This document shows, in pieces, positions 17,063 through 18,727 of a DNA stretch of 64,000 bases (position 1 is its first letter; each line of letters opens with the position of its first letter). The position numbers were made by a program, and so were the translations under genes. This DNA comes from Candidatus Parcubacteria bacterium (lineage in GTDB: Bacteria > Patescibacteriota > Patescibacteriia > Patescibacteriales > BM507), in assembly GCA_002869265.1 (NCBI GenBank), contig PKTH01000040.1, forward strand, positions 5,120-69,119. The letters are read 5' to 3'. The notes beneath the pieces were generated by a model, which was given only the letters and a program-made list of their open reading frames with translations, was not told the DNA's origin and searched no databases.

Positions 17063-17091
17063 TTGACAAAAGCTCAATTTTAGCCTAATAT
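17063..17091 (+). promoter_or_regulatory. Sigma70-type promoter for the OMPDC-PRTase gene
   Basis: TTGACA (17063-17068), 17-nt spacer, TAATAT (17086-17091). GAGGAGG SD lies before the ATG at 17172. Confidence 0.6.
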
Positions 17092-17171
17092 ATGCATAGT
17101 TTATGGAGGCAGTACTTTGAAAAAAATATTTTTTTATTATTCAAACAACCCTAAAATGAGGAGGAAAGCAG

Positions 17172-18680
17172 ATGAAGAATGTTGTAATTGTGCCGATTGA
17201 CGGGAAACAAAGTGGGTCTGGTATTTTAGGCACAGTCCACAATTTACTACAGTGCGAAACTGCTCGCTCAATGATCAGTCATTTCAAGATCAATGATGGC
17301 GTCAATACTCCCGATATGTCTGGACCAATGCTGATTTCAAAGATAAAGGCAGTAATCAAAGCTGCTGAATCTAAGGCTGGGATTTTTCTCGATTTCAAAC
17401 TTGCTGACACATCGGATACCAACTGGAACACTGTTAAACATTTTGTTGACCAAGGACTCCCCCCTGATATTTTGACAGTCCGCGAATCCTTGAGTACTAG
17501 CGGTTTCCTGAAACTACGAACCATGCTTCCCGATACCAAGATTGCCCTGGTCAGCATACTCACTGACACACCAGAAGAAGAATGCCGACGCAGAAATGGT
17601 ATGTTCCCAGCGGTCAAGCTTCTTAATGACATAACGAACATCCAAGCAGAATATGAAAAACGTCGCAATGAAACAAGTCCCAAAAGAGCCTTCGATATGG
17701 TAGTTTGTTCGCCCCTGGAGCTTGATCTGCTTGTCCGGAACTTTCCCTATCAATACCAATACATTGTTCCTGGTATCAGGGATTCCTGGATGGCTGCCGG
17801 TCAACAGGCTCGCATCTCTGGCATCGCCGCCGCTCTCAACCATGGAGCCACATACTGCGTTGCTGGATCCCAAATGCTCAAAGGAGCTCCTAACGATGGA
17901 GTTTCTGCTGAAGAAAGTCGCAAACTCACTGCTCTCGAAATTGAAAAAGCCAATTACACTTTCATCTGCCCTGAAGACCCAATGAAGGTTCTACTGCATT
18001 GTGGTGGTAGCTATGAGTCCCCACTGGGCTCTATTGGGGAGATTCTCGGTCCCTTGGTTGGCTACGCAGGGAAATACGGTCTCGAAGGAAAAAACTTTGT
18101 GGGTTCAGTCTATTTCAACTTTGCGAAAGCCGAACAGAATCCAATCGCATTAGCCTTCTATGGTGCCTACTTGGCTAACGAAATTCGAGAATATTTTGAC
18201 GTTATCCCAGATGCAGTGGCTGGCATGGCAAATGGTGGTGTAAAACTGGCTGCAGCTGTTGCCAGGGAGCTTGGCTGTCGCGATGTTACGGCTTATAAAA
18301 AAGTGATTCAGCCCGCTGATGTGAAAGCTGGCAAAAAGGAAGAGTCGATTCTCGAGATAAATCGTCATGATGTTTATCCTGATGATACCATCATCATAAT
18401 AGAAGATGTCTGCAACAACTTCTCGACAACCGAAAAAGCGCAAAAGCTCATTGAAAGCCTCGATGCTCAACTGGTCGGTATCGCTTGTGCCATTAACCGA
18501 GACAACGAATGGTATTGGAAGGGCCTCCCGGTTATTTCAGCCTCACACAGACCAAGCCCTCAGTACAAACAAGAAGACCCTATTGTCTCAACATTAATCA
18601 AGCAAGGAAAGATTGTCTGGAAAGCAAAAGAGGGGTGGAGCAAACTTATGGAGGCCATGGAGGAAGCGAATCCCAAATAA
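17172..18680 (+). CDS. Fusion protein: N-terminal orotidine-5'-phosphate decarboxylase-like domain plus C-terminal type I phosphoribosyltransferase (OPRT-like) domain
   Basis: The N-terminal half matches PyrF motifs in order: IFLDFKLADTSDT (DxKxxD..T), LVSILTD, DMVVCSP, IVPGIR...AGQQARI. The C-terminal half has GMANGGVKLAAAVA and the PRPP loop TIIIIEDVCNNFSTTEKA. Confidence 0.8.
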   Translation: MKNVVIVPIDGKQSGSGILGTVHNLLQCETARSMISHFKINDGVNTPDMSGPMLISKIKAVIKAAESKAGIFLDFKLADTSDTNWNTVKHFVDQGLPPDILTVRESLSTSGFLKLRTMLPDTKIALVSILTDTPEEECRRRNGMFPAVKLLNDITNIQAEYEKRRNETSPKRAFDMVVCSPLELDLLVRNFPYQYQYIVPGIRDSWMAAGQQARISGIAAALNHGATYCVAGSQMLKGAPNDGVSAEESRKLTALEIEKANYTFICPEDPMKVLLHCGGSYESPLGSIGEILGPLVGYAGKYGLEGKNFVGSVYFNFAKAEQNPIALAFYGAYLANEIREYFDVIPDAVAGMANGGVKLAAAVARELGCRDVTAYKKVIQPADVKAGKKEESILEINRHDVYPDDTIIIIEDVCNNFSTTEKAQKLIESLDAQLVGIACAINRDNEWYWKGLPVISASHRPSPQYKQEDPIVSTLIKQGKIVWKAKEGWSKLMEAMEEANPK

Positions 18681-18700
18681 ACTGTTTGAAAAATAATAAA

Positions 18701-18727
18701 GGCGACTGATTTCAGTCGCCTTTTTTC
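18701..18727. terminator. Bidirectional terminator between convergent genes
   Basis: ggcgactg/cagtcgcc 8-bp hairpin with a T6 run after it and an A-rich run before it. Confidence 0.75.

Follow-up and report, generated by a model that had tools for sequence, protein, structure and literature searches.

A conserved PyrF–PyrE fusion from Candidatus Parcubacteria, a probable UMP synthase built from diverged domains

Introduction

In animals and plants, the consecutive activities that convert orotate to orotidine 5′-monophosphate (OMP) and OMP to uridine 5′-monophosphate (UMP) are carried on one polypeptide, UMP synthase, in which orotate phosphoribosyltransferase (OPRT) precedes OMP decarboxylase (OMPDC). 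The opposite order, OMPDC followed by OPRT, is found in the kinetoplastids and has been reported in oomycetes, diatoms and some cyanobacteria (PMC2705460). Here we describe a gene with this second arrangement in a window of 64 kb, by which we mean the whole stretch of DNA that was analysed, from a contig of a Candidatus Parcubacteria bacterium (PKTH01000040.1). A preliminary description of the gene, made from the sequence alone, gave its domain order as one known from kinetoplastids, which is true but incomplete in view of the oomycetes, diatoms and cyanobacteria. It also overstated the novelty of that order in bacteria, since the cyanobacterial examples are known and a curated bacterial model, NF004034, exists. 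In bacteria the domain order is not new, and it is otherwise unsurprising that enzymes catalysing consecutive steps should be fused in an arrangement known elsewhere. The main value of the locus is that it belongs to a set of Patescibacteria PyrE, PyrF and PyrD proteins that are divergent enough to evade threshold-based annotation.

The coding sequence, a single open reading frame (ORF) of 502 codons as the preliminary description had claimed, lies on the plus strand at 17172–18680, stop codon included, and starts with ATG. In the full-length protein, Pfam recognises OMPdecase at residues 59–238 (28 bits; cutoff 27) and Pribosyltran at residues 333–445 (46 bits; cutoff 26.3). The gene is a real, conserved PyrF–PyrE fusion. 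We put the probability that it encodes a bifunctional UMP synthase, taking orotate through OMP to UMP, at roughly 0.8, judging from sequence and from a structural model. Its C-terminal phosphoribosyltransferase (PRT) domain would transfer the phosphoribosyl group of phosphoribosyl pyrophosphate (PRPP) onto orotate to give OMP, and its N-terminal domain would convert OMP to UMP and CO2. Both domains are strongly diverged Patescibacteria proteins, the one a PyrE nearest the Thermus/Helicobacter type and the other a PyrF of the short type, and the fusion is one of several arrangements of the pair in the phylum: fused, adjacent in either order, or fused to another PyrF subtype. The enzyme activity and the substrate specificity we infer, to set beside the domain identity, catalytic residues, fold, distribution and gene linkage that were observed and are described below.

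Results

Identity of the N-terminal half

Residues 1 to about 262 (17172–17957, plus strand) are assigned to a divergent, short-type PyrF domain through Pfam family PF00215, NCBIfam model NF001273 and the predicted fold. The scores of this half against PF00215, 28–30 bits, are barely over the cutoff of 27, and the family lumps the HUMPS and OMPDC proteins in one model, which cannot separate them. Sequence and profile searches of the Protein Data Bank (PDB) gave for this half OMPDC matches only, and those of the top 50 Foldseek matches that concern this half are OMPDCs alone. In the AlphaFold2 (AF2) model, the N-terminal half forms a (β/α)8 barrel that superposes on the OMPDCs of Bacillus subtilis, Escherichia coli, Vibrio and Coxiella, with target-normalised TM-scores of 0.78–0.81 to 1dbt, 1eix, 3ldv and 3tr2.

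The catalytic motif D74-x-K76-x-x-D79 (DFKLAD; 17391–17408, plus strand) is invariant in 54 family members and is equivalent to D71, K73 and D76 of the E. coli enzyme. Also invariant in the alignment of these 54 sequences are K39, which is aligned with the lysine of the upstream fvKvG segment in the OMPDC 27hh, together with T131, R203, Q212 and R214. The last three belong to the phosphate-gripper segment PGIRDSWMAAGQQARI (residues 200–215; 17769–17816, plus strand), which aligns to PGIR192...Q201 of E. coli. D204, W206 and M207 of the same segment are family-specific invariants, so that an invariant D-x-W-M comes after PGIR, unlike in canonical PyrF. The PyrF motifs quoted in the preliminary description are all present in the translation: VVIVPIDGK at residues 4–12, FLDFKLADTSDT at 72–83, ILTD at 129–132, VVCSP at 177–181 and VPGIR...GQQARI at 199–215. 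We assign this half as an OMPDC because its matches to models and structures are to OMPDC only, its catalytic residues are invariant and its predicted fold agrees.

A decarboxylase of the 3-keto-L-gulonate-6-phosphate decarboxylase (KGPDC) or hexulose-6-phosphate synthase (HPS) type had been mentioned earlier as a possible identity of the N-terminal half. The NCBIfam, PDB sequence and PDB profile searches gave OMPDC only and no match to either enzyme, and this identity is rejected.

Identity of the C-terminal half

Residues from about 263 to 502 (17958–18677, plus strand) are assigned, through model TIGR01367 and the Helicobacter pylori OPRT structure 4paw, to a type I PRT domain with an extended hood belonging to a PyrE-like family of the Patescibacteria. 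The domain scores 46 bits against PF00156. For comparison with finer models, 40 members of the family, mostly standalone genes from other genomes, were aligned; all 40 match TIGR01367 (pyrE_Therm), which gives the best E-value of any NCBIfam model (6e-19). Searched against the PDB, the profile of this half finds 4paw at an E-value of 1e-11, the adenine and xanthine phosphoribosyltransferases (APRT and XPRT) following at 3e-6 or weaker. The modelled fold points the same way, with Foldseek TM-scores of 0.72–0.75 to 4paw against about 0.65 to APRTs. Taken together, sequence and model place the C-terminal half in a PRT family that extends across the Patescibacteria and is nearest to PyrE of the Thermus/Helicobacter type.

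The PRPP-binding loop IIIIEDVCNNFSTT (residues 407–420; 18390–18431, plus strand), of which residues 407–419 had been correctly quoted as IIIIEDVCNNFST, aligns to EDIITTGKS of 4paw and is a variant of the canonical motif: the hydrophobic run and the E411–D412 pair are kept, and the phosphate-binding turn reads C-N-N-F-S-T-T. Within the family E411, D412 and N415 are invariant, and C414, N416, F417, S418, T419 and T420 are at least 90% conserved. A loop of the form E-D-[VLI]-x-N-N-[FYL]-S-T-T, here EDVCNNFSTT, is present in 72 of the 82 PRT matches across the loci considered below. The preliminary description was thus right to speak of a type I PRT with an atypical PRPP loop; the loop is a hallmark of the family and not peculiar to this gene. 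R398 and R443 are conserved in the PRT half, the latter as part of an N442–R443 motif that aligns with the NR of 4paw.

That description had also named a PRT for a base other than orotate as a possible identity of this half, and had proposed a hidden Markov model search of each half. The best models proved to be those of PyrF for the N-terminal half and of PyrE (TIGR01367) for the C-terminal half, so that its claim of an OMPDC–PRT fusion is borne out, each half being nearest to PyrF and PyrE, respectively. APRT, XPRT, hypoxanthine-guanine phosphoribosyltransferase and PurR were considered as identities of the C-terminal half and rejected, since OPRT is the best PRT match and these are always weaker.

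Distribution and gene linkage in related genomes

A scan of the GTDB species representatives found relatives in 182 genomes, nearly all of them Patescibacteria, and about 60 full-length homologues, 36–53% identical to the protein, have the same architecture. When 82 loci were classified by gene arrangement, about 32 were found to have the fusion. The PRT and OMPDC are adjacent genes in about 37, mostly in the order OMPDC then PRT, with a few in the order PRT then OMPDC and two convergent. A PRT gene stands without a detected OMPDC nearby in about nine (three of these at contig edges), and an OMPDC of the N-terminal type stands alone in four. When 1.84 billion cluster representatives were searched exhaustively with a profile, 345 were retrieved at E-values up to 1e-30, and the best 150 of these 345 include about 14 full fusions of the window type, about 25 standalone OMPDCs of the N-terminal type and more than 100 standalone PRTs of about 250 residues. 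The fusion is a minority architecture in a larger PyrE-like family.

The OMPDC partners of the PRT family fall into at least four subtypes. At loci L068 and L077 the upstream gene is a PyrF of subfamily 2 (TIGR02127), with 175 and 180 bits against an equivalog cutoff of 110.6, and at L041 (9071–10714) a type-2 PyrF, likewise above the TIGR02127 cutoff at 141 bits, is fused to a PRT of the same family. Because a second PyrF subtype has been joined to PRTs with the CNNFST loop, the sequences imply that fusion has occurred independently at least twice in the Patescibacteria. At L069 a canonical pyrF (135 bits in Pfam) is followed by the PRT gene and then by a PyrD-like gene; this PRT (L069:10249–11049) has no Pfam match at E-values up to 1e-3, and illustrates how the PyrE step can slip past standard annotation. 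Standalone OMPDCs of the N-terminal type, for their part, have as neighbours a canonical PyrE (126 bits) and PyrD at L045 and Thermus-type PyrE-like genes at L036 and L038. Since the partners are bona fide PyrF and PyrE in the two directions, each half is tied independently to the route from orotate through OMP to UMP.

PyrD-like genes occur in 13 of the 82 loci, and every one that was tested matches dihydroorotate dehydrogenase models best. They lie near the fused form at L013, L019, L023, L027, L030 and L032. At L051 (7998–9632) one ORF of 545 residues, just upstream of OMPDC and PRT genes, combines a PyrD catalytic part with a PyrK-like electron-transfer part. One locus, L062, has a dihydroorotase (268 bits), and at another, L066, carA and carB lie at a distance of about 4 kb.

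Further observations were made at these loci. The second type of fusion, a long type-2 PyrF joined to a PRT with the CNNFST loop in a protein of 541–573 residues, was also seen in P0066, P0068–P0070, P0150 and P0155. A Patescibacteria DHO_dh family with roughly 296 homologues, including L013:12811–13755, L019:8958–9929 and L027:8729–9673, scores 58–107 bits against a PyrD cutoff of 269; its members, which often adjoin PyrF and PyrE genes, are called 'hypothetical protein' at NCBI and 'dihydroorotate dehydrogenase' at JGI. In a metagenome-assembled genome (MAG) of the Doudnabacteria, the gene for a TSCPD-containing large subunit of ribonucleotide reductase (L067:12238–14817) comes after split OMPDC and PRT genes, so that genes of nucleotide metabolism form a cluster there. 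Some contigs that carry the family, which is otherwise specific to the Patescibacteria, are titled Gammaproteobacteria, Bacillota, Nanoarchaeota, Bdellovibrionales or Fimivivens (L006, L007, L014 and many other TPA_asm records; L020, L050, L074, L078 and L081). Mislabelling or mis-binning of the MAGs is the probable cause; real transfer of the family, for example to DPANN archaea, is a possible alternative.

Alternatives to a UMP synthase

Several observations weigh against a UMP synthase. Both halves score well under the cutoffs of the specific models: the N-terminal half reaches 54–56 bits with NF001273 (cutoff 193) and 26–28 bits with TIGR01740 (cutoff 92.3), and the window protein reaches 41–44 bits with TIGR01367 (cutoff 150.25) and 32–34 bits with TIGR00336 (cutoff 106.8). 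An hhalign comparison of the C-terminal half with canonical PyrE gives a probability of 57%, the hood being too diverged for the orotate contacts to be mapped. At the position of the T-T-G-x-T that is usual in PRTs, the PRPP loop reads N-N-F-S-T, and phenylalanine replaces the usually conserved glycine. In the OMPDC half, serine or alanine followed by an invariant glutamine, Q234, takes the place of the C-terminal phosphate-binding arginine (E. coli R222); in the window protein G232-S233-Q234 (17865–17873, plus strand) occupies the canonical G-R position. As the preliminary description had noted, no other pyrimidine gene lies near the fusion: the 64 kb of the window contain no PyrB, PyrC, PyrD, CarAB, canonical PyrE or PRPP synthetase. 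Finally, a search of the literature found no paper linking Patescibacteria, or the candidate phyla radiation, with OPRT or orotate.

Some of these points would fit a two-step enzyme of another pathway, in which the PRT takes a base other than orotate, such as a carboxylated heterocycle or a purine-like compound, and the OMPDC-like domain decarboxylates a nucleotide other than OMP. The atypical NNFST loop and the enlarged N-terminal hood could be read in this way, as could the replacement of the phosphate-binding arginine and the distance from the PyrE cutoffs, APRT models trailing by only about 13 bits on this sequence. The preliminary description had itself taken the loop as a possible sign of a different base. 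That idea is unsupported, however, because nearly all members of the PRT family share this loop, and the family is paired with several bona fide PyrF subtypes, with scores above cutoff at L068, L077 and L041, and has PyrD-like genes nearby at 13 loci. The single instances of dihydroorotase and of carAB speak in the same sense, the catalytic residues of the OMPDC are intact, and OPRT is consistently the top match of the PRT. We regard a different base as unlikely.

Slightly less probable again is a protein in which one domain is catalytically dead and serves a regulatory or ligand-sensing role comparable to that of PyrR and PurR, regulators with the PRT fold. PurR is among the weak matches of the PRT half, and the non-canonical loop together with the missing arginine could reflect relaxed catalytic constraint. 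Yet the K-D-K-D tetrad of the OMPDC and, in the PRT, the E411–D412 pair, R398 and R443 show strong purifying conservation, and the protein is without a DNA- or RNA-binding domain. Moreover, the near-invariance of the variant loop itself speaks for function rather than decay.

The weakest alternative, that misassembly or a frameshift has joined separate pyrF and pyrE genes of the kind that are adjacent in many related genomes, can be dismissed, as can the misassembled junction mentioned in the preliminary description: separate assemblies from ENA (a contig of 134.6 kb) and Logan encode the identical 502-residue protein, which is recorded at NCBI as 'hypothetical protein C0584_05025 [Candidatus Parcubacteria bacterium]', homologues are numerous, the same uninterrupted ORF occurs in about 30 species-level genomes, and the AF2 model of the two-domain protein is confident (pLDDT 94.2, pTM 0.91).

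Genomic context and flanking signals

The fusion gene stands out in base composition. Its GC content of 46.1% is the highest among the window's 44 genes (mean 36.5%, z 3.45), and so is its GC content at third codon positions (GC3), 44.3% (mean 29.7%, z 2.8). It is the sole plus-strand gene within a run of minus-strand genes. The related genomes of loci L007 and L029 share with this one a ScpA-ScpB-peptidase S11-TIM-FBA block, relative to which their fusion gene is differently placed. The outlying composition, the lone orientation and the different placement suggest that the gene may have been acquired horizontally or relocated. The convergent neighbour, a gene for 142 residues of unknown function (18734–19162), has the second-highest GC3, 41.3%; the segment 17172–19162 may be a small horizontally acquired one.

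No conserved operon partner was found. The neighbours of the fusion gene, namely HD_4, an ABC exporter, unknowns, a YfbR-like HD protein and glycogen genes, vary across the loci, and a conserved partner in the window genome is rejected for that reason. Two genes downstream of the fusion gene lies that for a YfbR-like/HD_3 protein of the 5′-deoxynucleotidase family (19166–19756, minus strand), and upstream that for an HD_4 protein, a RelA/SpoT-type hydrolase (13609–14217, minus strand). These flanking HD-domain proteins may be related to nucleotide salvage; elsewhere they are not conserved as neighbours. Further away, a minus-strand ORF of 3321 residues with repeated fn3 and Pur_ac_phosph_N-type domains (2466–12431) is probably a surface protein, and a glycogen/α-glucan cluster at 20403–26818 comprises a phosphorylase, a GT5/GT4 synthase, GH57 and a GH15 glucoamylase.

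Upstream of the gene, a σ70-like promoter candidate, TTGACA-17 nt-TAATAT, with 10 of 12 matches, is located at 17063–17091 on the plus strand. The preliminary description had credited the gene with its own promoter. The site exists as described, but such sites are no commoner than in shuffled sequence (four observed in the region against 4.3 expected from shuffles, the DNA being AT-rich), and its role as the promoter of the gene is plausible but unproven. A Shine–Dalgarno sequence, GAGGAGG, can be read at 17158–17164 on the plus strand, 7 nt 5′ of the ATG, and had been called strong in the preliminary description. A riboswitch or attenuator in the leader of about 80 nt was considered and rejected, since the leader has no Rfam match. 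Downstream of the ORF, a strong hairpin resembling a bidirectional intrinsic terminator (18698–18729) has an 11-bp stem with six GC pairs and T tracts on both strands; the stem–loop and one T tract take up 18698–18723. It agrees with the terminator proposed earlier, lies between the convergent genes and would serve both; its Rfam matches are sub-threshold and terminator-like.

Discussion

Pyrimidine supply and annotation

The usual picture of the Patescibacteria is of organisms that cannot make nucleotides. Nucleotide biosynthesis is generally said to be lacking in the group, while near-complete de novo pyrimidine synthesis has been reported for one curated Parcubacterium genome (PMC5220378; PMC11809585). 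In the window genome, a UMP synthase would serve either the last two de novo steps or the salvage of imported orotate. With the PyrD of a relative as query, no copy with the C0584 prefix was found among the best 120 of 296 matches. We suggest, tentatively and at well under even odds, that the fusion family and the divergent PyrD-like family together form a module leading from orotate or dihydroorotate to UMP that escapes standard annotation, and that the isolated copy here lets a host-dependent cell make UMP from the orotate of its host. If so, there would be a specific metabolic hand-off between the two cells, and pyrimidine auxotrophy would have been over-called in the Patescibacteria.

Because the PyrE-like proteins score far under the NCBIfam cutoffs and the PyrD-like proteins are named 'hypothetical protein', metabolic reconstructions that depend on thresholds are likely to miss these steps, and UMP production from orotate or dihydroorotate may accordingly be under-reported in these bacteria. 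To enzymologists, the family offers a natural and strongly conserved exchange of the T-T-G-x-T turn of the PRPP loop for N-N-F-S-T, and an apparent OMPDC without the canonical phosphate-binding arginine.

Comparison with known enzymes

Of the two-domain enzymes, the UMP synthase of the kinetoplastid Leishmania donovani (3qw4) resembles the window protein in the order of its domains, OMPDC then OPRT, and in the two activities that we attribute to it. It is the top Foldseek hit for the whole protein, with both domains aligned over 504 columns. The identity is only 14%, however, and the relative orientation of the domains is different, giving a root-mean-square deviation of 13–15 Å; in sequence searches the family profile finds 3qw4 weakly, and in the PRT region only (E-value 8e-4). 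The window fusion would thus have arisen independently of the kinetoplastid one. Compared with the animal and plant UMP synthases, which unite the same activities, the domain order is reversed, and the human OPRT domain (2wns) is a weak match of the C-terminal half (E-value 2e-5).

The cyanobacterial-type PyrF/PyrE proteins (NF004034, PRK05500; a model of 478 positions) are bacterial, share the OMPDC–OPRT order and are of similar length. The window protein nevertheless gives no match to NF004034 at E-values up to 10. Instead, the type-2 PyrF proteins that partner the PRT family at L077, L068 and L041 match the model weakly, in its OMPDC part, and we therefore take the window fusion to be a lineage separate from it.

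Taken singly, each half has a clear nearest relative. That of the C-terminal half, by sequence and by structure, is the Thermus/Helicobacter type of PyrE (TIGR01367; 4paw, H. pylori HP1257). The two have in common the YxN...aK.E segment of the hood, the E-D acidic pair, the NR motif and a GGI segment that replaces the canonical YKGIP. They differ in that the C-terminal half has NNFST for TTGKS, a flexible loop longer by about 11 residues, and about 50 extra residues at its N-terminus and 40 at its C-terminus; its family scores 40–75 bits with TIGR01367, for which the cutoff is 150. The N-terminal half is like the short-type OMPDCs (1eix of E. coli and 1dbt of B. subtilis; NF001273) in its fold, the DxKxxD motif, the upstream lysine, PGIR and the gripper glutamine. 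It departs from them in having G-S/A-Q for the C-terminal G-R and D-x-W-M after PGIR, and in scoring 54 bits against the cutoff of 193. The novelty, relative to all of these systems, lies in two domains that both stem from diverged subfamilies of the Patescibacteria, in a fusion that appears to be independent of those described before.

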